64,000 nt of DNA from a virus. The stretch is from positions 10,401 to 74,400 of the IMG/VR virus record IMGVR_UViG_3300050343_000281; one strand, given 5' to 3'. This document shows positions 16,439 to 57,931 of the stretch, in pieces (the first letter of the stretch is position 1; every line of letters starts with the position of its first letter). Under the pieces are notes generated by a model. It did not search any database and had not been told where the DNA came from. It worked only from the letters and a program-made list of their open reading frames with translations. Both the position numbers and the translations under genes were made by a program.

Positions 16439-16581
16439 GTTATTACACCTTTTCGGGAGATCGTATTTTTGTGAAACAAAAAACGAAAGGGCTTTCCACC
16501 CTTATTTTAATATATCTGTCACTTTTTGTACTTTTTGTTATATTTTTCATATAAAATAGCCCATCTGTCACTAAAATTATA

Positions 16582-16821
16582 TTAGTCCTTATCCGTCATA
16601 TCTTTGTAATCTTCGTCCGACACTATAATAGCTGCATTGTACTGAAGGTAGATTCCAAAAAAGTATAAAAATATATTTAGAAAAAATATCAATACTTGTA
16701 GAGGATATAAAGAAGATATTATAGCTATTTTAAAAGCACTTAATCTTTCTGGATAATTATATATTCTAAAAGTAGTCAGTCCTAGATATATAGAAAGATA
16801 TAATATTATTAAAAGTTCCAT
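16582..16821 (-). CDS. Hypothetical membrane protein
   Basis: Two hydrophobic segments. Confidence 0.6.
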   Translation of the reverse strand: MELLIILYLSIYLGLTTFRIYNYPERLSAFKIAIISSLYPLQVLIFFLNIFLYFFGIYLQYNAAIIVSDEDYKDMTDKD

Positions 16822-17027
16822 GAATCCTCATTAGTAGGTACTAAATATCCTAAAGATGCTAATTTAGTTTCCATATACAGCGTGTCACATACCATTTCTA
16901 TAGCTTCTTCTAAATCTTCTGCCATAAAAGTAAAAAATGCATAATCCCTTGCCACTTTTCCTACTATCATATTAAATCCTCCAGTAATTATAATAGTATT
17001 ATAAGTAATGTAAGTCAATAAGTACAT
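16809..17027 (-). CDS. Hypothetical protein
   Basis: Probable start at internal MIVGKV after GGAGG. Confidence 0.5.
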   Translation of the reverse strand: MYLLTYITYNTIIITGGFNMIVGKVARDYAFFTFMAEDLEEAIEMVCDTLYMETKLASLGYLVPTNEDSWNF

Positions 17028-17040
17028 TTTAACAACTATA
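17027..17040 (+). promoter_or_regulatory. Late-promoter motif TTTTAACAACTATA at strand switch
   Basis: Recurs at 19718, 23864, 25427, 27569, 29839, 40910 and 48820, each time intergenic before + strand genes. Confidence 0.8.
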
Positions 17041-17883: not shown

Positions 17884-18234
17884 ATGAGTGATTATAAAGA
17901 TGTTGAATACGAAATATCTATATTAAAGGATAAAATACTCCAATTAGAATCAGAAAATCAAAAAATGAAGCAGGTTATTTTAGATAACGAGCTTGAGAAT
18001 GAAATTGATGGCTTAGATGCTATATCTGAAGAAGAGTATATTTGTGTAAAGGGTATAGGACATTTAAAAAAACTATTTGAAAATGGAACATTTACTAAAG
18101 ACGATACTCAACAATTAGACTTACTTATAAAAAACCTTAGAATGATACGGGGACAAAGTAGTAAAAAAGCTAAAGGCAAAAGACTAAAAACAGAAGATGT
18201 AGCAGAGTTATTTAGTATAGTAAAAGGTAAATAA
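17884..18234 (+). CDS. Possible terminase small subunit
   Basis: Helical 116-aa ORF coupled (TAATG) to terL; positional inference. Confidence 0.45.
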   Translation: MSDYKDVEYEISILKDKILQLESENQKMKQVILDNELENEIDGLDAISEEEYICVKGIGHLKKLFENGTFTKDDTQQLDLLIKNLRMIRGQSSKKAKGKRLKTEDVAELFSIVKGK

Positions 18235-19697
18235 TGTCTAAAGAAGAGCAAAAAAAACTTGCGGCTAAGCATAAACTATGGAGAATGGGAGAATTAAGCT
18301 GGAAGTTAAAAGGAAAACAAGAAGATATATATAAAAACATGAGAGAAACTACTCATGATGTATCTTGTATATTGGTATCTAGACGTTTTGGTAAATCTTT
18401 TACAAACTGTCTTTTAGCAGTTGAAACTTGTCTTAAAAATCCTAATGCTATTGTTAAATATGCTTGTCCTAAGCAAAGAATGGTTCAAACTATAATTAAA
18501 CCCATAATGCGTGAAATATTTAAAGATGCCCCAGAAGAGTTTAATTTATCTGATATGTGGAAAGCTAATGATAAAGTATACCAATTTCCTAACGGATCAG
18601 AAATACAAATAGCGGGAACTGATAATGGTAATGCCGAAAACCTACGTGGTGGTTATGCTCAGTTGCTCATATGTGACGAAGCTGGATTTATGGACGATTT
18701 AGACTACGTAGTAAATTCTATACTACTTCCTACCACAGATACAACAGATGGTAAGTTAATTCTTACATCTACTCCAAATTATAAAGATCCTCAACATGAA
18801 TTTCATACAGAATTTGTATTCCCTCTAGAAGCAGAAGAAAGGCTTATAAAATATACTTTATATGAATCTCCAATGGTAGATGAAGATAAAATACAAAAGA
18901 TTATATCAAGATACCCTGGTGGAGCAGAGAATCCTAAGTTTAGATGCGAGTATCTTTGTGAGATACCTAAATTAACAGAAAACACTGTAATACCTGAATA
19001 TGGCTATAATAAACATGAGATCGTAATAGATGATGTAGCCCTTCCAGATCACTTTGATGCCTACGTAGCAGCAGATATTGGATTTAGGGACTTAACCGTA
19101 GTTTTATTCGGTTACTATGACTTTATGAACGCTCAGTTAGTTATATTAGATGAACTAGTAATGAACGGTCCAGAAATGACTACTGACGAACTAGCTAAAA
19201 GAATTAATCAAAAAGAAGAACTCAGATTTCATTTAGATTCTATTAACATGCCAGTAGCTCCGTATTTACGTATTATGGACAATGATTTAAAGCTTATAAA
19301 TGACTTAGTTAGGCTACATAATATTCATTTTATAGCTACTAAAAAAGATAATAAAGAAGCTCAAATTAACCAAGTTAGGTTGTGGGTACATCAAGGTAAG
19401 ATTAAAATTCATGAAAGATGTAAACATCTAAGGTATCATTTAGAAAATGCACAATGGGATAAGCATAGAAAATCTTTTATACAATTAAAAGATACTCCTA
19501 ATGGAGAAATTAGAGGAGGCCACTGTGATGCTCTTGACGCTCTTATATATCTAGTTAGAAATGTTAATGAAGGTAGAAATCCTTTTCCAGAAGATTATAA
19601 TAAATTAAGAGGACCAGGAATATTTAAAAGTCTCCATAAACCTAAAGAATCAAAATTACAGGAACTTATGGATACTATCATGGGAAAGATAAAATAA
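18234..19697 (+). CDS. terL: Terminase large subunit
   Basis: SRRFGKS Walker A, LLICDEAG Walker B, LTSTP, ADIGFRD and HCDALDALIY nuclease motifs. Confidence 0.95.
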   Translation: MSKEEQKKLAAKHKLWRMGELSWKLKGKQEDIYKNMRETTHDVSCILVSRRFGKSFTNCLLAVETCLKNPNAIVKYACPKQRMVQTIIKPIMREIFKDAPEEFNLSDMWKANDKVYQFPNGSEIQIAGTDNGNAENLRGGYAQLLICDEAGFMDDLDYVVNSILLPTTDTTDGKLILTSTPNYKDPQHEFHTEFVFPLEAEERLIKYTLYESPMVDEDKIQKIISRYPGGAENPKFRCEYLCEIPKLTENTVIPEYGYNKHEIVIDDVALPDHFDAYVAADIGFRDLTVVLFGYYDFMNAQLVILDELVMNGPEMTTDELAKRINQKEELRFHLDSINMPVAPYLRIMDNDLKLINDLVRLHNIHFIATKKDNKEAQINQVRLWVHQGKIKIHERCKHLRYHLENAQWDKHRKSFIQLKDTPNGEIRGGHCDALDALIYLVRNVNEGRNPFPEDYNKLRGPGIFKSLHKPKESKLQELMDTIMGKIK

Positions 19698-19761: not shown

Positions 19762-21851
19762 ATGAAAGACAGCGTTTACTTTGCTGCAGATACATCTGAA
19801 AAAGCTGCCAGTTACTTACAACACAAAACCAAAGAATGGTTTCAAAACATAAGTGTAAACAACTATCTAAATAAAATCAAAAAATCATGGGCTGCTTATC
19901 ATGGAAATTACTACGCTAGTAGTCATGAAATAACCTTTGGCGGGGAACAAGGAGAGCTTGTAAACCTAGCCGTAAATCACTATTCCAACCTATGTACTCA
20001 CATGCTTAATATGGTAACTGGGTCTCGACCTAGTTTTCAATGTAGGGCAATTAACACTGATAGAAAATCTAAAATCCAAGCTGAACTGGGTAATGGACTA
20101 CTAGAATATTATATGCGTGAAAAAAGACTAGAGCGTAATATAAAAGCTGCTGTAGAATATGCTATTGTATTAGGATCTGGTTTTGTTAAAATGGAATGGA
20201 ACGCTACTAGAGGCGAAATAAGTGATTATTTAGATATAAGTCCAGAAGATATTGCATCTTTTGATGAAGAAGGTAATCCATTAGACGAAGATGGAAATAT
20301 GCTTTCTCCCACTCCAATATACGATGGTGACGTAGATTTTTACACACTATCTCCTTTCGATGTCGCATTTGATCCAACTAAAGAAACTCCAGATTTACAT
20401 GAATGGGTAGTTATTAGAACTTTTGTAAACAGGTACAATCTTAAAGAAAAGTATCCTGAGTATGCAGAAGAAATTATGAGGATTGGAACTAAAGACACTC
20501 AAAATTCAAACAATAGAATATCTCTAACATCTTTTAGTAAAACTGATGATATACCAGTATATGAATTATATCATAAAAGAACTGAAGCTTGTCCAGAAGG
20601 TAGATTTATGATGTATCTTACTAGCGATATAGTATTAGAAGATACTGACATGCCTTATAGAGACTTACCTATATTTAGAATAGCTCCTAGGAACGTACTA
20701 GGGACTCCTTTTGGTTATACATCTATGTGGGATATTTTACCACTCCAAGATGCTGTTAATAGTCTTTATTCTACAATAATGACTAATAATAACGCTTTTG
20801 GGGTGCAAAATATTCTCAACCCACAAGGAAACAATCTAAAAGTTAATCAACTAGAAGGTGGGCTAAATTTTATAGAATATAATCAAACAGTTGGGAAACC
20901 AGAACCACTACAACTTACATCTACTGCTCCAGAAACTTATAACTTTTTAGGAATGTTAGAAAAGACCATGGAAACAGTTTCTGGCATTAACTCAGTAGCT
21001 AGGGGTAATCCTGAATCTAGTTTAAGATCCGGTACTGCATTAGCACTAGTACAATCTCAAGCTTTACAATTTATGTCAGGACTACAACAATCTTATATTC
21101 AATTATTAGAAGATGTAGGAACTGGATTAATTAACATATTAAAAGATTTTGCAGATGCTCCAAGAATTGCAGCAATTGCAGGAATATCAAATACCAGTAA
21201 AATGGTAACATTTAAGTCTGAGGATTTAGAAGCAATAAATAGGGTTGTAGTTGATGTCGGTAACGCACTCGCACAAACACCTGCTGGTAGAGCGCAAATT
21301 GCAGAAAATCTTCTTCAAATGGGGTTAATTACTACTCCAGAAAGATACTTAGAAGTACTAAATACTGGTAACTTGAAAACAGCAACACAAGGAATTACAA
21401 GCGAATTAGATACTATAAATTCAGAAAATGAAGCATTATTAAAAGGACAGAGTGAAGTCATTGCTATTGCAACAGATCACCATGCCATGCACATTAGAGA
21501 ACACAGATCTGTACTCTCCGACCCTGCATTAAGACTTGACTCAGAATTAGTAGCCAGGACTCTTGCTCATATTAATGAACATATCAGACTCCTTCAAGAA
21601 ACAGATCCTAACTTACTATCCATCATCGGGAGCAGCCCCTTGCTCCTCCTGGTGGATCTCCTATTAATCCTCAACAACAAGGCGGTATGCCTGGTGCTCA
21701 AGGTGCTTCTGCTCCATTACAAGGAACTCCAATGACTCAAGCAATGCCTGGTATGCCTAGTCCTGCTCAAGCTCCTGATATATTAGGACAAGGGCAACCT
21801 CAAACTCCTGAAGAATTACTGGCAATGAATTTAGGTGGAGGTAACTTCTAA
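19762..21851 (+). CDS. Portal protein (apparent -1 frameshift at GGG 21628-21630)
   Basis: Follows terL; SGINSVARG...SGTALALV portal motif; -1 frame gives a P/Q/G-rich tail ending at TAA overlapping the next ATG. Confidence 0.85.
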
Positions 21852-24063: not shown

Positions 24064-25347
24064 ATGGCTGATATTGGAAACGCTCTACCAGGGGTAGAAA
24101 ACGCTCAAAGTTCACTAAACGGATTATTTAAAGAAATTTACAACCAACTTAAGGACTTAGTACCTGCTAATACTAAAATGGCAGATATGATTCCTTTCGC
24201 ACCAGGAGACAAAGAACTAGGTGCTGCTTATAACGAGCCAGTAGTTCTAGGTTTAGAAGGTGGTGTAAGTTATGGTGGATCTGACGGAGAAGCTTTCGCA
24301 TTAAGAACTCCAAGTTCATTTACACTTAAAAACGCAAGAGTAAAGTCTGTAGAAATGGTATTAAGATCTGCAATTTCTACTGCTGTAGCTTCAAGATCTC
24401 AAAACTCTAACGGTGCTTTTGAAAGAGGTATTAAACTTCTTACTGGTAATATGATGAAATCTATGTACCACAGATTAGAAGTATCAATGCTTTACGGACA
24501 ACAAGGAATTGCTGTTGTAGAGTCTGTAGCTGGAACTGGTCCATCTGTAATTAAAGTAGAAGATCAAGAATGGGCTGCTGGTATTTGGGTTGGAACTACT
24601 AAGCACAAAATAGAAGTATTTAGTGCAGATTTAGCTACAAAAAGAGCTGAATTAACTATTTCAGGATATGATATTGGTGCTAAAACAGTAACTGTTATAG
24701 AAGATGCTTCTACATTACAAGCTACTGACGTAATCTTCTTTTCTGGTGCTGCTGAAGCAGGAGCTGTTCACAAGGATATGCTAGGTCTTCACAAAATCGC
24801 TTCAGAAAGAGTTTCATTATTTGAAATTTCTAACGCTACTGAGCCACTTTTCCAAGGTAACATCGTAGATGTTGGTGAACTTGCTAACGCTGCTGTACTT
24901 TCTTTTGCTAAAGTAGAAGAAGCTGTTGCAAAAGCTGTAGAAAAAGGTCTTGGAGAAGAGCAAATGACTGTTATAGTTAACGTAAACTCTTGGAATGACT
25001 TACTTACTGAGCAAACTGCTAAGAGAAGATTTACTTCTGACTACTCTTCTAAAATCAAAGAAGGTTCTAGAGCAATTGAATTTGAAGGACAAGCTGGTTC
25101 TATCAAAATTGTCCCTTCTACTTACGTAAAAGAAGGATACGCTTACGCTTTTTGTGAAAAAGATCTAATCAGAATCGGCTCTTCTAACATTACTTTTGAT
25201 CCAAAAGGATACGAAGGTGAATTTTTCAGACTACTAGATAACCACTCAGGTTACGAAATTAGAGCATACTCTGATCAAGCTCTTTTCTCTAGTAGACCAA
25301 GCTGTATTACTGTATTAAGGTACATTAAAAACGCTACACACGCATAA
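24064..25347 (+). CDS. Major capsid protein
   Basis: LNGLFKEIY N-terminal motif, position, strongly biased codons, own promoter motif and downstream terminator. Confidence 0.85.
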   Translation: MADIGNALPGVENAQSSLNGLFKEIYNQLKDLVPANTKMADMIPFAPGDKELGAAYNEPVVLGLEGGVSYGGSDGEAFALRTPSSFTLKNARVKSVEMVLRSAISTAVASRSQNSNGAFERGIKLLTGNMMKSMYHRLEVSMLYGQQGIAVVESVAGTGPSVIKVEDQEWAAGIWVGTTKHKIEVFSADLATKRAELTISGYDIGAKTVTVIEDASTLQATDVIFFSGAAEAGAVHKDMLGLHKIASERVSLFEISNATEPLFQGNIVDVGELANAAVLSFAKVEEAVAKAVEKGLGEEQMTVIVNVNSWNDLLTEQTAKRRFTSDYSSKIKEGSRAIEFEGQAGSIKIVPSTYVKEGYAYAFCEKDLIRIGSSNITFDPKGYEGEFFRLLDNHSGYEIRAYSDQALFSSRPSCITVLRYIKNATHA

Positions 25348-29838: not shown

Positions 29839-29879
29839 TTTAACAACTATAACTATAAGATATTGAAATAGGTATAGTT

Positions 29880-32015: not shown

Positions 32016-34130
32016 GTGGCTAATACTTATATAAGAATAGGAATAGGACTTACTGGATCAGGATCAGGAGGAGATACATTTAGAGTAAAAATATCTTCAG
32101 ATGATAATACTCCAGCTTTTTTAGAAGATAAAATTAAAGTAGGATCTAATAAACTTACTAAAGTAATAGAAAATCCTGGTGCAGATGAAAGAGTTGTATT
32201 AGATATTAGTCAAGAATTTATAGACACAGAAATAGAATTAAAATTAGAGGAGTTAGAAAGTTCATTAAATTCTTTAATACTTAATATAACTGAAGGAATA
32301 GACGAAAATATAGATTCTATTAATTCAAACATTAATAACATAAACCAACTAATACAAGAATTAAATTTAGAAATAACAGAAGTAGAAGAGTCCACTTTAA
32401 TTATAATAATAGCCTTAAAAGAAGAACTAGAACTAAATTTGCAAAATCTCAAATCTCAAATTGATGAAATAGAAGATATGGATGATAATCTTGCTCAAGG
32501 GTTATCAGAATTAGAAGATTCTTTATTGAATATAATAATTTCTAATAAATTAGATACTGATGCTGATTTATTAGAAGTAAAGGAAAGTTTAGAAAGTCAA
32601 GTAAGTGAAATTAAGGATAATGTAGATTTAATAGAATCTAATTTAGAAGACATAATAATTTCTAATAAATTAGATACTGATGCTGATATAGTAAATTTGG
32701 AAAATTCTATATCTACTAGTATAGAAAGTTCTATCTCAGAAATAACAGAAGCAACTAATGAACCAACTGGTTTTGTAAATAGAACTGACAGTGTAGTTAC
32801 ATTTGACGATGTTACTTTTACATTAAGTATTCAGCCTACAGTAGACTCTTTTGATATTTTTATAAAAGGAAATAAATGTACAAAAACTTCTGAAGAAAGT
32901 GTGTCTTTAGATAACAACTTATCTGGTAATCATTATTTTTTCTATAACGAAGACGGAGTTTTAATTGTATCTAATATATTTACTCCTAATATTTTTATAG
33001 AAAATGCAATTGTAGCTGTAGTATATTGGAATACAGATTTACAAGAACATGTTTATTTTGCAGAAGAGAGACATGGACTTCAAATGGACGGAGCTACTCA
33101 TGGATATTTACACACTACTTTCGGTGCTAGGTATATATCAGGGTTAGCTTTAGAAAATTTTTCTAATGTAGGAGGTCCGAGTTTAGATGTATCTTCTGGT
33201 AGTATTAGGGACGAAGATTTACTGCTCCAAATAAATCCTTCTACAACTTCACAACTTGGTATTATGTATAGAATTGGGAATCAATGGAGAAAAGATGGCG
33301 GACTTTCTTATCCTTTATTATACGGAGGATCTGTTTCTTCTTATCAAGGACTTGATTTAAGAGTTCCTTATAATGAATTTGATGAAATGTCCCAAGCTTG
33401 GGCTTTAGTGGAGGCTGATAATAATAACTTTGTATTAGTACATTACTTTGCTACGAACGACGTAGAGACTCCTATAGTAGCTATTCAAGGCACACAGCAA
33501 TATAATAATATACCTGATGCTAAAAATGGCGCAGCTAGTGAGATTAACTTACTTTCTGGATTACCGTTTTTAGAATTTGTTTCTATTGGTACAGTTGTAT
33601 ATGAAACTTCAAATGGTTTTACTAGACCTTCTTTAGCTGAATATGTAGAAATACAACCTGGAGTTGATTACGTAGACTTTAGAGGAACACAACCATATAC
33701 TCCTGCAGGTACTGCTACTTCTCATAGTATATTATCAGGACTAGCTAACGATGATCACTTTCAATATCTTACAGAAGAAAGGGCAGATATTTGGTATCAA
33801 AATAAATTCCCTTTAGAGATACTAGAACAAGATGTTACTTTTTTAGATGCTCAAACAGATGTAAATTCTGGTATAGTTTTAACAAATGATATGCAGGCTG
33901 TAAACATAGAAGTTGCTATAGAAAGAGGAACTAATATAGAATATTTACAGGTAGAAGCTGTAAGAACTCCTGCCAGCTTAGATTGGGCTGTTTCTACTAC
34001 ATCTCTGGGAAATAATAGCGGAGTTTCTATAGATGTAATAGGAAATAATATAAAATATACGTGTACTAGTACAGGAATAAATGCCCTAGCTAGAATAAAA
34101 GTAAACGGAATAGGATACAACATACCATAG
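32016..34130 (+). CDS. Tail fibre protein with coiled-coil stalk
   Basis: VKISSDDNTPAFLEDKI, acidic coiled coil with duplicated IIISNKLDTDAD, HSILSGLANDDHFQYL motif. Confidence 0.75.
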   Translation: MANTYIRIGIGLTGSGSGGDTFRVKISSDDNTPAFLEDKIKVGSNKLTKVIENPGADERVVLDISQEFIDTEIELKLEELESSLNSLILNITEGIDENIDSINSNINNINQLIQELNLEITEVEESTLIIIIALKEELELNLQNLKSQIDEIEDMDDNLAQGLSELEDSLLNIIISNKLDTDADLLEVKESLESQVSEIKDNVDLIESNLEDIIISNKLDTDADIVNLENSISTSIESSISEITEATNEPTGFVNRTDSVVTFDDVTFTLSIQPTVDSFDIFIKGNKCTKTSEESVSLDNNLSGNHYFFYNEDGVLIVSNIFTPNIFIENAIVAVVYWNTDLQEHVYFAEERHGLQMDGATHGYLHTTFGARYISGLALENFSNVGGPSLDVSSGSIRDEDLLLQINPSTTSQLGIMYRIGNQWRKDGGLSYPLLYGGSVSSYQGLDLRVPYNEFDEMSQAWALVEADNNNFVLVHYFATNDVETPIVAIQGTQQYNNIPDAKNGAASEINLLSGLPFLEFVSIGTVVYETSNGFTRPSLAEYVEIQPGVDYVDFRGTQPYTPAGTATSHSILSGLANDDHFQYLTEERADIWYQNKFPLEILEQDVTFLDAQTDVNSGIVLTNDMQAVNIEVAIERGTNIEYLQVEAVRTPASLDWAVSTTSLGNNSGVSIDVIGNNIKYTCTSTGINALARIKVNGIGYNIP

Positions 34131-34148
34131 ACATAATAGGATTTTACA

Positions 34149-34457
34149 ATGGACAATTACAAAAGACAAGAAGAAGAGGAAGCAAAAGAAGCTATTAGAA
34201 AGATAGCATCTGCTAGAATACAACCTTATTTAGAAAAAGCTGCTAAAAAAGCAGAAAGAAAATTATCTGACCTTGCATATGACGGTGGATTAGATGATGA
34301 GACTCTGAAAAAAATTGCAGGTACAGTAGGCGCTTTAGGTGCTATTGGCAAGGGAGAATTAGAAGGTGGTTTTGATATTGACGAAAATACTAGAGTAGAA
34401 GGTAGAGTTTCTCCTAGAGAACAAGCCATTAGGTTATTGTATAATCAGAGATTTTAA
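34149..34457 (+). CDS. Hypothetical protein
   Basis: 102-aa ORF. Confidence 0.65.
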   Translation: MDNYKRQEEEEAKEAIRKIASARIQPYLEKAAKKAERKLSDLAYDGGLDDETLKKIAGTVGALGAIGKGELEGGFDIDENTRVEGRVSPREQAIRLLYNQRF

Positions 34458-34618
34458 ATTTTTTATTAAAAAAAGGGTTGACTTACTTTAAATTAAGCTT
34501 ATAATATATACTATAGAACGCTCTAAAAATCCCCAATATATAGTATTTGTTATCAAGCTACGTATTAAAAATACATGATACGTAAATTAACGCTCGGTAT
34601 AGAACTATAGGGAATTAT

Positions 34619-35521
34619 ATGAAACTTGTAAATAATAAAAAAGTTTTAGTAGAAGATGTAGAAGGTACATCTCAATACGATGGACAACAAGTATTAAAAG
34701 ATGTCCACTCCCTTCCAGGGCATTATTTACGAACTAAAGACGCATTTTCTCTAGTTACAGCTCATTTTGACAGCTTTCAAGTTACTTACGATTCTAACAA
34801 TAATCCTACATTTATATCATATCTAGTTGGAATTACTCCACATTTAACAACTATAGGACTATCTGGAGATGTTAATGGATCTTTACAAGATACTGGATTT
34901 ATTATAAGTTCTTCTAAGAAGGAAAAAAGATTTGCTATTTACTATACAGTATCTGGACAAGGTAGTGCTCCTAGTATGGATGGAGTTACTAACATAGAAG
35001 TGCCTCTTGAATTAGATGATAGTGGGCAAATAGTAGCTCTTGCTACTAAATTAGCACTAGAAAAAACTTGTGAATTTGATATTAAAACTTTTAACTCTGT
35101 TTTAGAAATAAAAACTAAAGAGTTAGGAATTACAAATAATACAATACTTCTACCAAATTCTTCATTTTTGATACAAAATACAAGTGGAGAAGTAGAAAAA
35201 GTAGAAGAAGTTAATATAAGTTACTCAGACTCTGGATACCCTATTTGGCAGGGACAAGAGTTAAAAGAACATAAGTATAATATATATACTGCGAAATTTG
35301 AAACATTAGTTGCAGATTATACAGATGTTTATGGAAAGAAGTCTTTAAATGTAGTAAATTCTGATGAAGTAGTATGGGACGAAATAGTAACTTCTTTTCC
35401 AGATACGACATCTGAACTATACACGTATAGATTTGAACAAAATACTGTTCAAACTGTTTTAGTAACTTATGCTAACGGAAGTAGAAGTTCTATTTTGAGT
35501 GTAGTAAAAACAAGGGTATAA
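34619..35521 (+). CDS. Virion structural protein
   Basis: Contains module similar to repeats in 42308..48403. Confidence 0.6.
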   Translation: MKLVNNKKVLVEDVEGTSQYDGQQVLKDVHSLPGHYLRTKDAFSLVTAHFDSFQVTYDSNNNPTFISYLVGITPHLTTIGLSGDVNGSLQDTGFIISSSKKEKRFAIYYTVSGQGSAPSMDGVTNIEVPLELDDSGQIVALATKLALEKTCEFDIKTFNSVLEIKTKELGITNNTILLPNSSFLIQNTSGEVEKVEEVNISYSDSGYPIWQGQELKEHKYNIYTAKFETLVADYTDVYGKKSLNVVNSDEVVWDEIVTSFPDTTSELYTYRFEQNTVQTVLVTYANGSRSSILSVVKTRV

Positions 35522-35522
35522 A

Positions 35523-35711
35523 ATGGCTTGGAGATTTGATCCACAAATTATAGATATAGTATTTGTTCAAAATCCAGATCAAATTCAGGCTAGCGGTTCT
35601 ATTGATTTTGGAGAAGACATTACTTCAGATATATCAATTGATACTGGAGATAGAACTAATGATACCTCCATACTAGATCAAGGCGAGAGAGTAATAGATG
35701 GCAATATTTAA
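35523..35711 (+). CDS. Small virion protein
   Basis: MAWRFDP start, acidic. Confidence 0.55.
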   Translation: MAWRFDPQIIDIVFVQNPDQIQASGSIDFGEDITSDISIDTGDRTNDTSILDQGERVIDGNI

Positions 35712-36075
35712 AGTACCTAGAATAACAACATCTCAAAGGCAGAATCTAATTCTTCAAATTGGAGAAATAGTTTATGATACTGACCAAGATATTTTTTATG
35801 GAGGAGATGATGAAACTTTAGGTGGATTTACTATAGGTAAAGGTGCTGGAGATGTCGTAGAACGTATAGAATTAGAAGAAGAAAATATATTTAACAAATT
35901 TGTAACACTAGGAGATACTCCTGTAATATCTCAAAACGTAACTGTTACTCCAGAAGGCGGAATAACTCAAGTTAACGGCATAGACTTTAGAGTAGTAGGA
36001 AATACTATTAGATGGGATGGCATGGGACTTGATGGAGTTTTAGATAAAGACGATTCTTTAATAGTACAATATTAA
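35698..36075 (+). CDS. Tail-associated protein
   Basis: PRITTSQR...GEIVYDTD...YGGD motif; C-terminal domain related to that of 37699..39942. Confidence 0.65.
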   Translation: MAIFKVPRITTSQRQNLILQIGEIVYDTDQDIFYGGDDETLGGFTIGKGAGDVVERIELEEENIFNKFVTLGDTPVISQNVTVTPEGGITQVNGIDFRVVGNTIRWDGMGLDGVLDKDDSLIVQY

Positions 36076-36118
36076 GTTTTACAGCTAAACTGCTGTAATT
36101 AAACCAAAAGGAGTGTGT

Positions 36119-37645
36119 ATGAAAAAAAACACAAAAGACATCAAAGATTCTGTATTAAAAACCAGAATTAAACAGGCTAATAAAAGAGCCAAAGAAGTAG
36201 AAGCTTCTCAAGGGAAAAGTGATGATATAGTTAATGATAACTATGCAGCACTTTATTCTAAAGGACTAGCTCACGATTCTACTACTATGTTAGCAAGTGA
36301 AGCTGATATTAAAGAGATCCAAATTGCATTAGAAACTGGAGAACAATCTGATTTTGACGACATTAAACTTGTAGGAGCTAGAAAACAAGCTTCTCCTCAA
36401 GGTTCTTTATCTTCAGAAATTTCTGGTGGAGATCCAGAAGGATTTTCTATGAAAAAAGCTCCAGCTCTTGATTCAAGAGAAGCTGCTGCTGAAATGGCTG
36501 AAGTTTATCTTAAAAACATAATGAGAGACAAGCCATTTAAAGATTACGAAGATGGTTCTCAAGAAATTCAAGATGCTTTAGATATTCTTAATGCATTTGG
36601 AAGTGATTTTTTAGGACTAAAAGAAAACGGATCAGTAACTCCTAAAACTCTTTTTAGAGGAACATCCCCAGGATGCTCTGTTGGCGGATACGTATCTCAA
36701 CTGTTTCTTAATGAAATTGGAGTAGGTAATTTTTCTTATGAGCCAAAAGGACCAACTAAAACTGGAATCTATGGAAATACTAAAGCTAATTATTTACAAA
36801 TCCAAAACGGTAATGTACCAGTATCTCAAACTGTTGATTCAGTTAAAAAATGCATGTTTAACGGTAGACAACTTGGTTCTACAGTTCACATTGACCTAGT
36901 TTTTCAACATTTCTATGAAGCTGCTGCTATTCTTTTAAATGCAGGTGTAGGAGCTGGTGCTCAAGTTAAGGTTGGAGCTAAAGAAGGTAACTTTTTAGGC
37001 GGACCAGTATTACTTACTACTGCAATTGCTGAAGTATCTAGACACGCTCTAAGAGCAGCTTGGGTACAAAAGTGGAGAAAAAACCAAAGATTAAGACCAG
37101 AAGCTATGGCTGCAAGAGTTGTTGCTGAAAAAGCTGGAGATATTCCTTCTGGAACAGTACATGCTGATTTAATGTCAAGTGCTATTGTAGGAGCGGTTGA
37201 AGCTTTTAACGTAGCTAACAGTGGAGATAATGCAGCATTTTTACCTCTTCAGTATGCTGAAGGTAGTCCGACGCATCCTGCATATCCTGCTGGACACGCT
37301 ACAATTTCAGGAGCTTGTGCTACTATTCTTAAGATAATGTTTGCTGATGCAAATTGGTCGACTACTGGTCTTTCTGAAGTTCAAGGTAATAGTGATGGGT
37401 CTGTTGTAGAAGCTTATTCTGGCGCAGATGCTGGACAAATTACTATCCATGGAGAAATTGACAAATTAGCACATAACGTAGCTTTAGGAAGAGACTATGC
37501 TGGAGTGCATTACAGAAGTGACTCTGAATTAGCTCTTGGAGAAAAAGTAGCTATTCAATTTTACAAGGATCAAAAAGCACTTTTCAACGAAGAAGTTGAG
37601 GAAGTTACTTTTATTGGATTTGATGGTAATCCAATTACTGTATAA
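36119..37645 (+). CDS. Vanadium-dependent haloperoxidase family protein (bromoperoxidase-like)
   Basis: QKW...RLRPEA, EGSPTHPAYPAGHAT.SGAC.TILK, GEIDKLA.N...GRDYAGVHYRSD, plus N-terminal YSKGL.HD and AP...S...AAEM.E.Y blocks. Confidence 0.9.
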   Translation: MKKNTKDIKDSVLKTRIKQANKRAKEVEASQGKSDDIVNDNYAALYSKGLAHDSTTMLASEADIKEIQIALETGEQSDFDDIKLVGARKQASPQGSLSSEISGGDPEGFSMKKAPALDSREAAAEMAEVYLKNIMRDKPFKDYEDGSQEIQDALDILNAFGSDFLGLKENGSVTPKTLFRGTSPGCSVGGYVSQLFLNEIGVGNFSYEPKGPTKTGIYGNTKANYLQIQNGNVPVSQTVDSVKKCMFNGRQLGSTVHIDLVFQHFYEAAAILLNAGVGAGAQVKVGAKEGNFLGGPVLLTTAIAEVSRHALRAAWVQKWRKNQRLRPEAMAARVVAEKAGDIPSGTVHADLMSSAIVGAVEAFNVANSGDNAAFLPLQYAEGSPTHPAYPAGHATISGACATILKIMFADANWSTTGLSEVQGNSDGSVVEAYSGADAGQITIHGEIDKLAHNVALGRDYAGVHYRSDSELALGEKVAIQFYKDQKALFNEEVEEVTFIGFDGNPITV

Positions 37646-37698
37646 TTAAAAAATAAAAAAAGCAAAGTTGCTTCCTATTTTAACAAAAGGAGAGCCAC

Positions 37699-39942
37699 AT
37701 GGCACAACAATTAAAGAAGAAGTTTATTGCCGACAACGCAGTTGACGGTGATAAAATCAAACTACTTAAAGATCAGTCTTTAGAAATTGAAAATCAAGCT
37801 GGTCAAGTAATTAGCTTGTTACAATTAAATGCTTCTGATGAAGTTCTTATTAAAGGCGAAGCTGCTGCTACAAGAGCTTACGTTGATCAAGAAGTTAGTG
37901 CAGAAGAGACTAGAGCAATGGCTGCTGAAAGTGTTTTACAGGGCGAAATTAATGCAGAAGAAGTAGCTAGAATTGCTGCAGACTCTGCTTTACAAGATGC
38001 TGTAGATGCTGAAGTAGCTGCAAGAATTGCTGCTGACGATGTTTTAGATACTGCAATTAGTGCAGAGCAATCTAGAGCACAAGGCGAAGAAGCAAGAATT
38101 GAAGGTAAAGTAGATCAAGAAGTAATTGATAGAGCTGCTGCTGATACCACATTACAAGGTAATATAGATGCAGAAGAATCTAGAGCACTTGCTCAAGAAG
38201 CTGCTATCAGAGGCGAATTTGCTGCTGCTGATACTGCACTACATACTACTATTTCTGCAGAAATTGATGCAGATGTTTTAGTAGAAACTCAAAGAGCACA
38301 AGGTGAAGAGTCTAGAATTGAAGGTATAGTAGATCAAGAGGTTCTTGATAGAGCTGCTGCTGATACTACATTACAAAGTGCAATTGATACTGAAAAAAGT
38401 AGAATTGATGCAATTTTATCAGCTTCTACTGCAAATGCGGACAGTTTCAAAGAAATTGTTGACTTAATCAATTCAGTTGATACTGCAAACGATGACGCTT
38501 TTGCTGCCTATGTACTATCTAATAACGCTGCATTAGCTGCTGAAGTATCAGCTAGAGGGACACTAGAAGGCGAATTTGATGCTTACGTAATTTCTAACGA
38601 TGCTGCATTAGCACAAGAAGTTAGTGATAGAGCTGCTGACGTAAATGCAGAAGAAACCAGAGCACTAGCTGCTGAAGGTGTTTTACAAGGTAATATTGAT
38701 TCAGAAGCTGCTTCTAGAGCTGCTGAAGATCTATTAATGTTAAAATTAGATGGGTCTAGACCAATGGGGGCTGCTTTAGCTATGGGATCTTTTAAGATTT
38801 CAGGAATGGCAGACGGTTCTGTTGCTTCAGATGCTATTAATAAAGGTCAATTAGATGCTGCAATCGCTGGAGCTGCTTCAGACGTAACAGCTTTAGAAAA
38901 TGAGTTAACTCAAGAAATTTCTGACAGAGAAGCTGGCGACGCTGCTATAAAAGGTGTTCTGGGAGGAATGGAAGCTTATACTACTATTAAAGCTCTAAGT
39001 GACGCTGTAGAAGCTGAAGAGTCTGCTAGAGGTACTTTAGAAGGCGAGTTCGATGCTTATGTTATATCTAACGATGCTGCATTAGCACAAGAAGTTTCTG
39101 ATAGAAGTGCATTAGAAGGGGAGTTTGACGCTTATAAAATCTCTAATGATGCGGCTTTAGCTGCTGAAGTATCAGCTAGAGAAACTTTAGAAGGTGAGCA
39201 TGACGCTTATGTTATCTCAAATAATGCTGCATTAGCACAAGAAGTTTCAGCCAGAGGCTCTGCTGACAATACGCTACAAAGTAACATTGATGCTGAAGCA
39301 TCAGCTAGAATTGCTGCAGACGTTGTTTTACAAAGTGCAATTGACACTGAAAAAGGTAGAATTGATACTATCTTAGATATGTCTACTGCAGATGCGGACA
39401 GTTTCAAAGAAATTGTTGACTTAATCAATAGCGTAGATACTGAAAATGATAATTTATTTTCTGGACATGTAACAACTTATAACGCTTATGTTACTGCAAA
39501 CGACGCTAGAGTTTTAGCTGTAGAAGGCGAAGTTGATACTCTTCAGTCTGAAATGAGTGCTGTAGAAGGTAGACTTGATATAGTTGAGCCAAAAGTTTCT
39601 ACTCTAGAAATGGAAATGGACGCTGTAGAAAACAGAGCTACTACTTTAGAAGGTGAAATGGACTCTGCTGAAGGAAGATTAGACGCTATTGAAGCTGAAG
39701 TTTTCCATAAAGAGCAGTTTGTTCTTACTCAAATTCAAATAGACGCTCAAAAAGTAGTTCTTTCTAATGCTCCACAAGCTAACTCTGTAGTAGCTTTTGC
39801 GGGTAGACTAGCTCTTCACGAAGGTGCTGCTCAAGATTACGAAATGTCTGGTTCTGATTTTCAATTCAGAGGAGACATTGCTACAGCCGGAGTTTCTGCT
39901 CTTGTAGCTGGAGATGTTATTACTATAGTTTACTACAAGTAA
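37699..39942 (+). CDS. Long alpha-helical tail fibre protein
   Basis: E..R..AAD..LQ..ID repeats, duplicated ADSFKEIVDLINSVDT, LKLDGSRPM...DAINKGQLD motif. Confidence 0.8.
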   Translation: MAQQLKKKFIADNAVDGDKIKLLKDQSLEIENQAGQVISLLQLNASDEVLIKGEAAATRAYVDQEVSAEETRAMAAESVLQGEINAEEVARIAADSALQDAVDAEVAARIAADDVLDTAISAEQSRAQGEEARIEGKVDQEVIDRAAADTTLQGNIDAEESRALAQEAAIRGEFAAADTALHTTISAEIDADVLVETQRAQGEESRIEGIVDQEVLDRAAADTTLQSAIDTEKSRIDAILSASTANADSFKEIVDLINSVDTANDDAFAAYVLSNNAALAAEVSARGTLEGEFDAYVISNDAALAQEVSDRAADVNAEETRALAAEGVLQGNIDSEAASRAAEDLLMLKLDGSRPMGAALAMGSFKISGMADGSVASDAINKGQLDAAIAGAASDVTALENELTQEISDREAGDAAIKGVLGGMEAYTTIKALSDAVEAEESARGTLEGEFDAYVISNDAALAQEVSDRSALEGEFDAYKISNDAALAAEVSARETLEGEHDAYVISNNAALAQEVSARGSADNTLQSNIDAEASARIAADVVLQSAIDTEKGRIDTILDMSTADADSFKEIVDLINSVDTENDNLFSGHVTTYNAYVTANDARVLAVEGEVDTLQSEMSAVEGRLDIVEPKVSTLEMEMDAVENRATTLEGEMDSAEGRLDAIEAEVFHKEQFVLTQIQIDAQKVVLSNAPQANSVVAFAGRLALHEGAAQDYEMSGSDFQFRGDIATAGVSALVAGDVITIVYYK

Positions 39943-39959
39943 TAGATATTAATTAAATT

Positions 39960-39981
39960 GGAGGGCTTTGCCCTCCTCTTT
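39960..39981 (+). terminator. Probable terminator
   Basis: GGAGGGC-TTT-GCCCTCC then TCTTT. Confidence 0.55.
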
Positions 39982-53043: not shown

Positions 53044-55947
53044 ATGAAAAATGATCAAGAAAAGTTAACATTCTTAGATGAAGATATATTAAATGAAACA
53101 AAAAGAGAGCCTTTAGAAGAAGATACTTTAACTTTTTTAGATGAAGGTGTTGAAAGTTTTTCACAAGATGTAATAGATAAAGATAAAATGAACATAGTAG
53201 AAGCATTGTCTAGAGCGGGAGTTAGTGGAGCTGCTCTTGGTCTTGCTCCCTTTGTTGGAGGAGCAGGAGAAGCTGGAAAAGTATTAGAAGATTTTGCAAG
53301 TCCCTCTGGTGAACCAGCTACTTATAAAGGTATGCCTATGGGTAAACCTAAATCTAAAGAAGAAATAAGAAAATTTAAAGATTATTCTGATCTTTTGTCT
53401 CAACTAAAAGAAGCTTATTATAAAGGAAGAGATGAAACAATAGAAAAAGAAAAAGAAGCAATAGAAGACTATCCAGTATTAGGTACTGGAGCTTTAATAG
53501 CAGGGTCAATACCTACTACAATATCTACTGGTGGATTAGCTGGTGGAGGAAGAGCTGCTCAATTAGCTAGTAAAGTACTACCAAAAGCTGAAAGTTTAAC
53601 TGGTTTAAGTACTGCAGCAAAAGCTGGAAAAATGGCTAAAGAAGGACTTAAAGCAGGAGCACTAACTGGATTTGGAAGCGGAGAATCTAAGATACTAGAA
53701 GGAGATGTTTTAGGAACAGCAGAAGAAACCTTTGAATCTGGTATAGGAGGAGGATTATTAGGATCATTATTTCCAGTAGCAGGTAAGGCTATTTCAGGTA
53801 CTGCAGGATTAACTAAAGCTGGTATTAAATCTTTACCAGGAGCAAAAGCTATTACAACAGGTTTTCAAGCTGGTGAAAAAGGAATAAATATAACTGACGA
53901 AGCTCAAATAGCAAAATTTATAGATACTTCTACAAAAGATATTAAATCTAAAATATCTACTTTATTTGGAGAAGAAAAAGCTTCTGAGTTAGCTAAAAAA
54001 CTAGATGACCAAGGATTAAGAGTTTCTATAAAAAATATAGTAGATGATACAAAAGCTCAATTAGAAAAAGGTGGATTAAGTAAATCAGAAGTTTCACAAA
54101 GGCAAGAATTTTTAGATGACTTATTAGCTGTAGATAGTCAATTTGATAAAATAAAATACGATGCTTTTAGAAAAGTAGAAAAACAACAAGCTGCTAAAAT
54201 AAACAAATTATCTAGACAGGGCACAGAAGTAAAAACTAGGACAGAATTTGATACTCCTTATGAAGAATTATCACCACTTCCAGATACAAAAGGTAGAGTA
54301 ATAGGAGTAGAAGATAGAGTAAAACTTCCTAGTGGTAAGGAAAAAGAAATAATATCGCAAGTTTCTTCTCAAGAAGGACAAGTACCTCTTAGAAAACTAG
54401 ACTATAGTAATTTAAAAATATCCGAAGCAGAAGACTTAAGAAGAGGGGTATATAAATTTACAGATCCTTCTAATTATGAAAAGCCAGTAGGAGATATAGC
54501 AAAAGGTATGAGATCTAAAATATCAAAAGCTATTGATGAAGCTGTTAATTCTAGTGAATTTTCTGAAAAAAGAGCTAATATGAGTAATATTTTTAACGCT
54601 CTAGATTCTTTAGGTATTAAAAAAGAAAAATTTATGTCTAGAAATCCAGTAGACCAAAATGAAGTTACTGAAAAATTAATACAAGCTGCTACTGCAGATA
54701 TAAGCTCTCCTAAAGGTAGAGCTTTTACAAGAGCTGCAGAATTTCTTAATATTGTAGATGGAGATATATCCCAACAAATTAGAAATAAATCAGATTTTTT
54801 AAATAGACTTTCTCAATTATCTAGACAATCAGATGCAGAAGGAAGTACTAGTAAAATTACTGCATTATTTGGAGCTGCTCAAAAAGGGGCAGCAAAAGCA
54901 GGTAATATAGCTGGATTTGCATCTAAAGGTATATCTGATGAAGCTTCTACAGCTAAAAAAGCATTAATAAGTGTTTTAAAAGAAGCTACTCCAGAAAGTC
55001 TTGAAGCATTAGGAGTAAGATTATATAATAATTATCAACAATCTGCAGCACCTTTTGTAAACCAATTACAGAAAGTCATGTCTTTACCAGAAACTAGAAG
55101 AACTGCAGTATTATATGGAATATACCAACAACCTGCTTTTAGAAAAATGCTAAGAAATGTTGGACAAGAAATTGTAGGTGGGGAATTACAAGCTGCAGAA
55201 TTACCAATGCAAGGAGAGCAAAATGAAGATAACAATGATGTTACTATGTCTGATAATGTTTCAGAAGTTGACTCTAAAAAAAAAGTAGAGAATAGTAGAG
55301 AGCCTCAAAATATCGTAAAATCCTCTGAAATATTAGAAAGAGAAGGAGACGGAGATGCTACTGGTGCTGCAAAAACTGGAAAATATGGCATAACACAGCC
55401 TGCTATTGATCAACTAAAAAAACAAGGAGTATCAATACCAGAAGAGATGGATACGTTAGAAGAAATAAATAATCTTCCTAAAAAAGAAAGAAGCGATCAG
55501 TATGAAAAATTAGCTAGTTTGTATTTAGATTATATAAATAAAAAGATACCAGACTCCATGAAAGATACCTCTAATGAATTTAAAGAAAATATAATAGACG
55601 CTGCTTTTAACCTTGGTACAGGAGTTTTTAATTATAAAAAACTTAATGAATTAGTAAAAGAAGCTAATAAGTTAGAAGGTAGTGAAAAGAATATTAAATT
55701 AGCAGAAGCATTGCAAAAAGGATTATTTGACACAGCTAATTCTGAAGGAAAGACTCTTAGGGGATTAGCCAAAAGACGAGCCGAAATGTATAATAAATTT
55801 GCTACCTCTGTCGGGCTACCTAATATATCTTCAGTAGAACAAAAAGAAAACGGAGAGTTAGTTTATTATGGAGAAGATGGTAGTGAGGTTTTTAAATACA
55901 AAAGACCAAAGCATGAAAAATCAGATATAGGTAAACTGGATGTATAA
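53044..55947 (+). CDS. Large ejection protein with C-terminal lysozyme-like domain
   Basis: Gly/Ala-rich membrane-like segments; ILEREG...TGKYGIT...DAAFNLG.G...LRGLAKRRAE. Confidence 0.7.
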   Translation: MKNDQEKLTFLDEDILNETKREPLEEDTLTFLDEGVESFSQDVIDKDKMNIVEALSRAGVSGAALGLAPFVGGAGEAGKVLEDFASPSGEPATYKGMPMGKPKSKEEIRKFKDYSDLLSQLKEAYYKGRDETIEKEKEAIEDYPVLGTGALIAGSIPTTISTGGLAGGGRAAQLASKVLPKAESLTGLSTAAKAGKMAKEGLKAGALTGFGSGESKILEGDVLGTAEETFESGIGGGLLGSLFPVAGKAISGTAGLTKAGIKSLPGAKAITTGFQAGEKGINITDEAQIAKFIDTSTKDIKSKISTLFGEEKASELAKKLDDQGLRVSIKNIVDDTKAQLEKGGLSKSEVSQRQEFLDDLLAVDSQFDKIKYDAFRKVEKQQAAKINKLSRQGTEVKTRTEFDTPYEELSPLPDTKGRVIGVEDRVKLPSGKEKEIISQVSSQEGQVPLRKLDYSNLKISEAEDLRRGVYKFTDPSNYEKPVGDIAKGMRSKISKAIDEAVNSSEFSEKRANMSNIFNALDSLGIKKEKFMSRNPVDQNEVTEKLIQAATADISSPKGRAFTRAAEFLNIVDGDISQQIRNKSDFLNRLSQLSRQSDAEGSTSKITALFGAAQKGAAKAGNIAGFASKGISDEASTAKKALISVLKEATPESLEALGVRLYNNYQQSAAPFVNQLQKVMSLPETRRTAVLYGIYQQPAFRKMLRNVGQEIVGGELQAAELPMQGEQNEDNNDVTMSDNVSEVDSKKKVENSREPQNIVKSSEILEREGDGDATGAAKTGKYGITQPAIDQLKKQGVSIPEEMDTLEEINNLPKKERSDQYEKLASLYLDYINKKIPDSMKDTSNEFKENIIDAAFNLGTGVFNYKKLNELVKEANKLEGSEKNIKLAEALQKGLFDTANSEGKTLRGLAKRRAEMYNKFATSVGLPNISSVEQKENGELVYYGEDGSEVFKYKRPKHEKSDIGKLDV

Positions 55948-57169: not shown

Positions 57170-57931
57170 CTACATCTCCATTTTAATATGGTTAGAGATA
57201 TTATTATAATATTCTAATACATAATCTACTTCTTGCGAGTTAGCTGATCTAACCGATAGAGGGCTAGTAATTAATGGACATTTAGCAAACTCTACATCTA
57301 ATATTCCAAAAAATGATCTAAATTTTTGAATATAAGAACCTGAGAAGTTTTTATCACATCTTACCGATACTATTTCATCTGCATGATTATCCTTAACAGC
57401 CTGAGAACCAGTTAACCATAATTCGTCTGCAATTAAACTTTCATATTTTTCTAAAGAAATTCCAATTCTATCAGAGGCAATAGTATTTAATTCTCTTATA
57501 TTATCTTGTAAAAGTTTTAATAATTGATTTAACTCTCCTCCAATTTCACCACTCAGACCTCTAATACTGGCTCTGTGGCTCATTAAGATACCAGAAGGCA
57601 GTATGTATCTTTTACCTAGATTCTGAACCGTCTGATAGCCCATAGAGGCTGCAAAAATAGTAATTGTATGAAAGTTACAAGGTAATGCGTTTAGTGTGTC
57701 AAAGAATAATTGACCTGCTGACACTGATCCACCTGGAGTATATAAAACTACGTAAATATCACTCCCCTCACTAGCGTAACACTTAGAAGATGCTTCTAAT
57801 TGTTTTTGTGCAACAAATCCGCCAGTAAATTGATTGTTAAAGCTAATGCTGTTTTTTTCTGTCAATACAATACTTTTTGAAAAGCCTAATGTAGAAACTA
57901 GCATTAAACCTAAACATAAAAATAATTTCAT
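57170..57931 (-). CDS. ClpP-like serine protease with N-terminal signal peptide
   Basis: TPGGSV, AASMG (Ser), MSHRA (His), DELWLT; MKLFLCLGLMLVSTLGFS signal. Confidence 0.8.
   Translation of the reverse strand: MKLFLCLGLMLVSTLGFSKSIVLTEKNSISFNNQFTGGFVAQKQLEASSKCYASEGSDIYVVLYTPGGSVSAGQLFFDTLNALPCNFHTITIFAASMGYQTVQNLGKRYILPSGILMSHRASIRGLSGEIGGELNQLLKLLQDNIRELNTIASDRIGISLEKYESLIADELWLTGSQAVKDNHADEIVSVRCDKNFSGSYIQKFRSFFGILDVEFAKCPLITSPLSVRSANSQEVDYVLEYYNNISNHIKMEM

Follow-up and report, generated by a model that had tools for sequence, protein, structure and literature searches.

An uncultured marine phage carries a gene for a full-length homologue of the vanadium bromoperoxidases (VBPOs), located at positions 36119 to 37645 on the plus strand of a 64,000-nt stretch of its genome (hereafter the window; positions 10,401 to 74,400 of IMG/VR record IMGVR_UViG_3300050343_000281). 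The encoded protein of 508 amino acids (aa), referred to here as VHPO after its family, the vanadium haloperoxidases, is very probably a catalytically competent member of that family, as judged from aligned residues and a predicted structure. Taken together, sequence and model make it likely that VHPO is a soluble haloperoxidase specified by an accessory gene, made late in infection, non-structural, and released at lysis. The enzyme family is well known; its carriage by a tailed phage is so far undescribed.

Homology to vanadium bromoperoxidases

The open reading frame (ORF) of the VHPO gene contains all three of the vanadate-binding motifs that a first-pass annotation of the window had ascribed to it (Table 1). 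An in-frame GTG at 36113 would lengthen the protein by 2 aa, but relatives begin at the ATG. The Shine-Dalgarno-like sequence before this ATG (Table 1) has a counterpart, the same AAAAGGAG, 5′ of the next gene, downstream of VHPO.

A phmmer search of the PDB returned vanadium haloperoxidases only. The best match was VBPO I of Ascophyllum nodosum (1QI9; E value, 2.3e-46), with residues 40 to 493 of the phage protein aligned to residues 48 to 517; Corallina VBPOs and the Acaryochloris VHPO were matched at E values of 1e-44 to 1e-46, and the Zobellia iodoperoxidase merely at 0.18. The proposal that long N-terminal blocks resemble those of algal and cyanobacterial bromoperoxidases reflects real homology, as the alignment to 1QI9 lies far beyond chance. 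An AlphaFold2 model, built from a 57-sequence alignment that took in phage, bacterial, and giant-virus sequences, had a mean predicted local distance difference test (pLDDT) score of 94.6 and a predicted template modeling (pTM) score of 0.94. Foldseek comparison of this model with the PDB gave template modeling (TM) scores of 0.89 to 0.90 to 1QI9 (root mean square deviation, 2.8 to 2.9 Å; 27 to 28% identity) and of 0.86 to 0.88 to the Corallina and Acaryochloris enzymes. With scores of 0.86 to 0.90 to five different solved VBPOs, the predicted helical-bundle VHPO fold extends along the whole chain. The fungal chloroperoxidase, the Zobellia iodoperoxidase, and NapH-type enzymes merely reached TM scores of 0.2 to 0.27. 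Plain acid phosphatases, which might have been the closest structures, were found only at E values of >0.1 (PhoC, PhoN, and PgpB; TM scores, 0.1 to 0.2), and the earlier view that the protein is more than a PAP2 phosphatase is borne out by both the E value and the TM score to 1QI9. No match to the protein was obtained in NCBIfam or in PHROGs, structural families included. Overall, the assignment of the ORF as a full-length VBPO homologue holds on the alignments and the predicted fold.

Kinship to the PAP2 acid phosphatases appears to be at the superfamily level only. Those enzymes are compact (about 200 to 250 aa) and carry the motifs KX6RP, PSGH, and SRX5HX3D, features that the phage protein does not share: its first motif is K-x7-RP, the Ser is absent from PSGH, and Gly takes the place of Ser before R458. 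The active site is nevertheless common to both groups, as a weak PAP2 match reflects, and an alternative reading is that the protein acts mainly as a vanadate-free phosphatase or phosphotransferase, supplying phage DNA synthesis with phosphate where seawater is poor in it, in the manner of other phage phosphate-acquisition genes. According to the title of PDB entry 3bb0, apo-vanadium chloroperoxidase forms a phosphate intermediate in dephosphorylation. One relative is labeled 'membrane-associated phospholipid phosphatase' by JGI, and a cytoplasmic location may disfavor vanadate loading. However, the entire 500-aa bromoperoxidase architecture has been kept, beyond the PAP2 core, the TM score is 0.9 to VBPOs versus 0.1 to 0.2 to acid phosphatases, and the halide-side residues W315 and H386 are invariant, though needless for a phosphatase. 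The phosphatase activity of apo-VHPOs is low. We regard a mainly phosphatase role as unlikely.

Active-site residues

In the phmmer alignment with 1QI9, the Lys and two Arg residues that hold vanadate (K318, R326, and R458) fell on K341, R349, and R480, the catalytic acid-base His (H393) fell on H418 (His404 in chloroperoxidase), and the vanadate-bonding His (H464) fell on H486 (His496 in C. inaequalis). W315 and H386 fell on W338 and H411, respectively. H386, seven residues ahead of the catalytic His, is the additional His that had been singled out earlier; it is a second-shell residue replacing Phe397 of chloroperoxidase. The position three residues before the active-site Lys (i-3) is Trp in both the A. 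nodosum VBPO and the C. inaequalis vanadium chloroperoxidase, and halide preference is not readable from the second-shell His or the i-3 residue alone (PMC11871015). Across the alignment, K318, R326, H386, H393, R458, H464, W315, and D259 were invariant in 57 of 57 sequences.

The first-pass annotation had pointed to the replacement of the usual PSGH Ser by Ala. The substitution is present, but it is not specific to the phage: A391 and G392 each occur in at least 90% of the 57 aligned sequences, the Ala is near invariant in the bacterial and phage subfamily, and Acaryochloris has it as well. Since the Acaryochloris VHPO is an active brominating enzyme (PMC11871015) and at least 90% of the subfamily have Ala, the Ser cannot be strictly defining for VHPOs. 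The segment after RSD is indeed shortened, by two residues relative to 1QI9 and most relatives.

Phylogeny, selection, and export signals

More than 2000 proteins of ∼510 aa matched VHPO at an E value of ≤1e-3, and a profile search identified 1167 clusters (50% identity) at ≤1e-30. In a scan of GTDB species representatives (one genome per prokaryote species), the best 80 loci held full-length cellular relatives with 34 to 41% identity (best, 41%) from Verrucomicrobiota, Planctomycetota, Myxococcota, Acidobacteriota, Bacillota, and Cyanobacteriota. Copies with 33 to 84% identity were located in 15 IMG/VR contigs and 20 metagenome loci. A maximum-likelihood tree of 119 rows (quick search; the PDB enzymes were not among the rows) contained a 40-row clade with a Shimodaira-Hasegawa-like approximate likelihood ratio test (SH-aLRT) value of 95. 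Of the 14 viral-contig copies, 12 fell in this clade, as did every one of the 25 metagenome rows, but no cellular row did (0 of 51). Overall, the clade appeared in the 15 viral contigs, the 20 metagenome loci, and more than 100 protein clusters. The cellular rows formed a separate clade (SH-aLRT, 95), which included the copy from a giant-virus metagenome-assembled genome (locus L015). On this phylogeny, the phage gene appears to belong to a VHPO branch found only in viruses.

Outside the phage clade, a homologue with 37% identity was present at 9950 to 11566 of a 618,736-bp IMG/VR contig (L013) and paired with P0126 (SH-aLRT, 100). A very large virus may have acquired this copy independently, or the contig may be cellular and misclassified.

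Ratios of nonsynonymous to synonymous substitution rates (dN/dS) of 0.09 to 0.18 within the close subclade indicate that the gene is under purifying selection. Invariant catalytic residues together with a dN/dS near 0.1 argue for an enzyme, and the earlier suggestions of a virion-borne protein or of an enzyme scaffold repurposed as a structural protein found no direct support.

A Tat-like twin-arginine signal, carried on an N-terminal extension with a median of 59 aa, was identified in 57 of 79 cellular homologues and in none of the 32 viral or metagenome rows; this comparison shows the predicted export signal to have been lost in the phage clade. In the phage protein itself, neither a signal peptide nor a membrane helix was detected (Kyte-Doolittle maximum over 19 residues, 0.16 within the N-terminal 60 aa and 1.23 for the whole protein). 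It has no hydrophobic N terminus and no Tat-like signal, in line with what had been claimed at first.

The first-pass annotation knew of no characterized phage example, and none was found in the literature, GenBank phages, or PHROGs. A tblastn search of GenBank phages yielded no VHPO homologue, the literature searched yielded no description of a vanadium haloperoxidase from a phage or other virus, and in BFVD the fold was found only in giant-virus proteins (Sylvanvirus, Hokovirus, and Yasminevirus; TM scores, 0.77 to 0.95; 24 to 28% identity). Given that the virus-only clade stands apart from all characterized enzymes (27 to 28% identity to 1QI9), the VHPO fold could serve a different chemistry here, either as a selective halogenase for one host or signaling metabolite, comparable to the alkyl-quinolone VHPOs, or as a non-halogenating catalyst comparable to NapH3. 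Selective and non-halogenating VHPO homologues do exist (PMC11312541; title of PDB entry 8cxl). However, the protein is structurally nearest to the bromoperoxidases of algae and cyanobacteria, which are non-selective, and not to the NapH/Mcl type of Streptomyces (TM score, 0.2), and no biosynthetic gene cluster surrounds the gene in any phage locus. Such a special chemistry is, in our estimate, very unlikely.

Residence in a phage genome

The virus record is 74.4 kb in length with a completeness of ∼95%, and the late-block phage genes for the large terminase, portal, and major capsid protein lie on the same strand and contig as the VHPO gene. The G+C content of the gene is 0.367 versus ∼0.31 for the window, with the excess in codon positions 1 and 2 (the protein is Ala rich); at codon position 3 (GC3), its value of 0.143 compares with 0.10 to 0.23 in other late genes. 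Codon use resembles that of the capsid and fiber genes, as had been stated, with GCT-rich Ala codons, GTA/GTT-rich Val codons, and a correlation of relative synonymous codon usage (RSCU) with the pooled late genes of 0.91. Contigs from three independent studies, retrieved from Logan, bridge the gene junctions (X3, 34240 to 37662; X4, 35694 to 38464; X1, 33000 to 37422). Runs X1 to X4 are seawater samples in which the phage is present.

These data bear on whether the VHPO gene could have reached the contig through chimeric assembly or as host DNA fused to phage sequence. A slightly raised local G+C content and the lack of homologues in GenBank phages could be taken as signs of such an event, but the raised G+C does not extend to GC3, which is like that of the neighbors, the contigs from the three studies span both junctions, and 15 viral contigs have homologues, with the L005 copy in the same late block. 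To the extent that contigs can tell, these results exclude a chimera or a recent insertion of host DNA, whose probability we put as negligible, and the description of the gene as phage encoded stands.

A megablast search with 20 kb of the window found no match in GenBank phages, and the phage appears to be without a close cultured relative. The terminase, portal, and capsid genes share a GenBank phage relative in CP017838.1 (Silvanigrella aquatica) at 26 to 32% identity (E values, 4e-41, 3e-61, and 3e-22, respectively). Among GenBank phages, the capsid protein matched nothing else, and no other match to the terminase or the portal came close. By tblastn, CP017838.1 has no VHPO gene. Together with a G+C content of ∼31%, the Silvanigrella relative may offer a weak lead to the host or lineage. 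Candidate hosts, likewise weakly indicated, are marine Silvanigrellales/Oligoflexia and Flavobacteriales.

Gene contexts in other phages

Locus L005, with a copy of 73% identity, has the same terminase, portal, and capsid families as the window, and its VHPO gene occupies the same late block, two genes after a fiber homologue. In L098 and L102 (79% and 70% identity, respectively), a fiber homologue lies directly upstream. The gene follows an unrelated capsid gene, phrog_752, in L115 (84%) and a third capsid family, phrog_138, in L012, L016, and L011 (43 to 46%). In L003 and L110 (50%), it is situated between a glucosyltransferase-like gene and a helicase gene, and in the 52-kb viral contig L006 (56%; features at 400 to 3858 and 15457 to 17028), it sits between the gene for a DNA polymerase resembling family A (phrog_405) and that for a phage-type GroEL (phrog_5725; E value, 2e-137). 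The copies in L099 and L100 (78%) are found among small opposite-strand ORFs. All-against-all BLAST of four genes per side from 22 loci revealed no partner common to all architectures; only the fiber homologue recurs.

Because its position differs across at least five phage architectures, the gene is best described as encoding a mobile accessory enzyme with no fixed part in a fiber module. From these contexts, it would be a mobile accessory cassette, often in late operons and sometimes beside fiber genes. The link to a tail-fiber module drawn in the first-pass annotation thus survives in part: the gene does lie in the plus-strand late structural block and does adjoin a fiber gene, but the arrangement is not fixed, with copies of 50 to 84% identity in other contexts. 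The gene has the attributes of a phage auxiliary (moron-type) gene, namely a cellular-type enzyme encoded within a genuine phage genome, phage-gene flanks, and patchy spread among phages. Those of a virion structural protein were absent, with no structural PHROG match and a position that varies among lineages.

Another possibility is that VHPO travels on or in the virion, for instance docked near the fibers, either as an enzyme or as a part co-opted for structure; it would then act at the cell surface or matrix upon adsorption, or cross-link or halogenate fiber or capsid proteins as particles assemble. This reading draws on several of the same observations. The gene is in the late block directly upstream of the fiber gene, with no terminator-like site between them; fiber homologues lie one to four genes away in L005, L098, and L102, with weaker ones in L011, L012, and L016; in phages with three unrelated capsid families (phrog_14242, phrog_752, and phrog_138), the gene lies 3′ of the one for the major capsid protein; and the missing signal peptide fits packaging. 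Set against these are the lack of a structural PHROG match and of any added docking domain, with end-to-end alignment to free-standing bacterial and algal enzymes, as well as copies of 50 to 78% identity in replication-type or other regions (L003/L110, L006, and L099). The gene may also be dispensable, as it is split into two ORFs in L101. Morons commonly insert in late operons. A virion role is unlikely, and an accessory enzyme remains our preferred reading.

The split homologue in L101 (138 to 1670; ∼80% identity) consists of ORFs of 122 and 383 aa and could represent either a frameshifted pseudogene or an assembly error. Downstream of VHPO in L100 (11766 to 13655) and L101 (2835 to 5029, minus strand), four to five opposite-strand ORFs of exactly 102 aa are arranged in tandem with a spacing of ∼525 bp.

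Neighboring genes and transcription

The late plus-strand block spans ∼17.8 to 56 kb of the window (Table 1). Its 967-aa protein is probably a virion-associated cell wall hydrolase, judging from the endolysin-like domain.

Table 1. Positions of the VHPO gene, its motifs, and other features in the window
Feature	Position	Strand	Basis or remarks
Gene for 508-aa vanadium haloperoxidase family protein, bromoperoxidase type	36119-37645 (incl. stop)	+	ATG at 36119; ORF, phmmer, AlphaFold2, Foldseek
Shine-Dalgarno-like AAGGAG	36108-36113	+	5 nt 5′ of VHPO ATG
Motif 1, W315-E328, WVQKWRKNQRLRPE	37061-37102	+	K318-x7-R326-P327
Motif 2, H386-H393, HPAYPAGH	37274-37297	+	Aligned to HPSYPSGH (1QI9) and HPSYGAGH (5LPC)
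Motif 3, G457-D468, GRDYAGVHYRSD	37487-37522	+	R458-x5-H464-x3-D468
125-aa late gene, upstream of VHPO	35698-36075	+	No Pfam or PHROG match
747-aa Ala-rich coiled-coil fiber-like gene, downstream of VHPO	37699-39942	+	YadA_stalk (E value, 3.4e-7); PHROG matches
Terminator-like hairpin GGAGGGC-TTT-GCCCTCC, then TCTTTAT	39960-39976	+	7 pairs, 6 G-C; 3′ of fiber gene
TAACAACTATA copies	12827, 17030, 19721, 23867, 25430, 27570, 29841, 34845, 40913, 48823	+	
TAACAACTATA copy	15276-15286	-	
Large terminase	18234-19697	+	
Portal, P22/SU10-type	19762-21735	+	
Major capsid protein	24064-25347	+	phrog_14242
2031-aa protein		+	Within late block
967-aa late protein, endolysin-like C-terminal domain	53044-55947	+	phrog_31077 (E value, 1.7e-14)

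The VHPO gene had been placed between two structural genes sharing a C-terminal domain. Its downstream neighbor is indeed fiber-like, with YadA_stalk scoring 31 bits against a cutoff of 28.4, but direct BLASTP between the upstream 125-aa and downstream 747-aa proteins was not significant and did not confirm the shared domain; a loose pattern and transitive links through L005 were all that was visible. The C-terminal half of the 125-aa protein resembles a 142-aa protein of L005 (7762 to 8190; BLASTP E value, 1.3e-6), encoded three genes upstream of the VHPO gene in that locus.

The 11-mer TAACAACTATA has 11 exact copies in the window. With up to one mismatch, 16 were found versus 5.3 expected, and none of 100 shuffles reached 16. 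Because nearly all copies lie on the plus strand before late genes, TAACAACTATA may be a late promoter of the phage. One copy (34845 to 34855) is intragenic, within an ORF at 34619 to 35521; the nearest intergenic copy upstream of VHPO is at 29841 to 29851 on the plus strand, and the next intergenic copy is at 40913. As no copy lies directly 5′ of the VHPO gene and the nearest intergenic one is this distant, late co-transcription is something that we infer. Sigma-70-type promoters were at chance level (26 found versus 23.2 expected). No terminator-like site comparable to the hairpin 3′ of the fiber gene was found between the VHPO and fiber genes, and this hairpin is likely to mark the end of the transcription unit holding the VHPO gene. 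Contigs of the metatranscriptome library X11, from a relative ∼90% alike, span 36114 to 39085 across the VHPO-fiber junction, with DNA carry-over possible. They cover the VHPO and fiber genes and almost none of the flanks, uncovered parts not being counted as evidence, and give a weak hint of co-transcription of the two genes.

Populations vary in the short VHPO-fiber spacer (37648 to 37660): 27 nt are missing from one X1 contig, contigs of X4 and X11 carry a 10-nt insertion that is AAGGGGACGG-like, and three point differences occur in all runs. Within the fiber gene, 38074 to 38233 and 39636 to 39678 were matched by short X4 contigs at a depth of 265 to 617, compared with ∼25 for the phage. 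The coiled-coil repeat units of the fiber seem to be common to much more abundant phages in the X4 sample.

Three further genes were identified outside the late block. The minus-strand early arm encodes a 334-aa pentapeptide-repeat protein (10257 to 11261; Pfam Pentapeptide E value, 5e-89); such proteins can mimic DNA, and an anti-defense or gyrase-protecting role is possible. The right-hand minus-strand arm encodes a ClpP-like protease (57170 to 57931; E value, 8e-13) and an aminotransferase/alliinase-like protein (60271 to 61287; E value, 1e-11).

Proposed function and significance

By the mechanism of the family, vanadate would be held by H464, through a bond to vanadium, and by K318, R326, R458, and the A391-G392 backbone. 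H2O2 would bind the vanadate with the aid of H393, and the peroxo-vanadate would oxidize bromide or iodide, possibly with some chloride, to hypohalous acid, which would in turn halogenate or oxidize nearby molecules. The gene itself would be an old acquisition, spread among unrelated marine phages as an accessory (moron or auxiliary) gene and kept by purifying selection. Transcribed with the late structural genes, VHPO would build up in the cytoplasm and, having no Tat signal, would reach the outside only via lysis. In this scheme, transcription together with the late genes, loading with vanadate, oxidation of halide, and lytic release are all steps that we infer. Among candidate benefits, we would put first that the enzyme consumes peroxide or generates oxidants in the vicinity of the lysing cell, where it might also destroy signaling molecules; chemical attack on the matrix or on competitors comes second, and modification of virion parts third.

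A number of points weigh against a non-structural haloperoxidase released at lysis. The gene is found in late or structural blocks of at least three capsid-gene lineages, often near a fiber gene, as a virion protein would be. The canonical PSGH Ser is Ala in the phage protein. Local Pfam gave only PAP2, below threshold (15.7 versus a cutoff of 27.2 bits), and the local VCPO_2nd model (PF22778.2) had no match, whereas precomputed tables list PF22778.4 for the protein and all relatives. The contigs listed for two clade members (P0079 and P0108) have lengths of 150 and 240 kb and could come either from jumbo phages or from cells. Some VHPO homologues do not halogenate, as the title of PDB entry 8cxl states for NapH3. 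Finally, members of the family are not usually cytoplasmic, and it is uncertain whether VHPO would be loaded with vanadate in that compartment.

Vanadium haloperoxidases are regarded as the chief biogenic source of reactive bromine and iodine in the sea, a role ascribed to algae, cyanobacteria, and some bacteria. There is a real chance that VHPOs in phages carry ecological weight; a conserved virus-only clade in tailed phages, if confirmed as such, would add lysis as a route for reactive-halogen chemistry. A bolder proposal, which we consider doubtful, is that a virus-only VBPO branch in abundant marine phages is released in bulk at lysis into seawater, where vanadate, bromide, iodide, and peroxide are all present. 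Viral lysis would in that case supply HOBr, HOI, and volatile organohalogens by a route so far unrecognized, and the enzyme would also destroy bacterial signals or matrix around the burst or, alternatively, cross-link the phage's own fibers. For fiber cross-linking, peroxidasin, which cross-links collagen IV, offers an analogy. The gene would also represent a type of auxiliary gene new to phages, the sole characterized viral halogenase, VirX1, being flavin dependent. Since VHPO is small, soluble, without a signal, and confidently predicted, it should be easy to express and assay, and it may be of interest to biocatalysis, a field that already employs the enzymes of Acaryochloris and Corallina.

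Comparison with known systems

Among characterized enzymes, A. nodosum VBPO I (1QI9) is the closest counterpart. The two proteins align end to end, are of similar length (508 versus 556 aa), and share the Lys, Arg, Arg, and His vanadate ligands, the catalytic His, the i-3 Trp, and the extra His. They differ in that the phage protein is only 27 to 28% identical, has Ala for Ser416, and is two residues shorter in the stretch after RxD; its gene is located in a tailed phage rather than an alga, and the protein is known from sequence and a model.

The Acaryochloris marina VHPO (5LPC and 8Q20-22) resembles the phage protein in the Ala-Gly-His of motif 2. This enzyme and the Corallina VBPOs compared (1QHB, 1UP8, 7QVW, and 8VH0) are 596 to 666 aa in length, and the N-terminal part of the phage protein aligns to them only in weak, separate stretches. 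Corallina VBPOs form a hexamer of dimers. The Acaryochloris VHPO has the same assembly, and in both groups the i-3 residue is Arg instead of Trp (PMC11871015).

The nearest cellular relatives are Tat-exported bacterial VBPO-like proteins, which share the invariant residues and the motif 2 Ala of the phage protein. They form the separate clade (SH-aLRT, 95), with a Tat signal in 57 of 79, in contrast to the phage clade, which is without one. Giant-virus PAP2/VHPO-like proteins place the family in viruses of eukaryotes as well; these belong to Nucleocytoviricota, not tailed phages, and the giant-virus locus L015 groups with the cellular clade rather than the phage clade.

Bromoperoxidase-type VHPOs release diffusible hypohalous acid. 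VirX1 of cyanophage Syn10, by comparison, is a substrate-bound, regiospecific iodinase, and this flavin-dependent enzyme was described as the first halogenase characterized from a virus (PMC8407142). VirX1 and the phage VHPO are alike in that each is a halogenating-type enzyme encoded by a marine phage, and they are unrelated in fold and cofactor, with flavin and a carrier Lys in the one and vanadate in the other.

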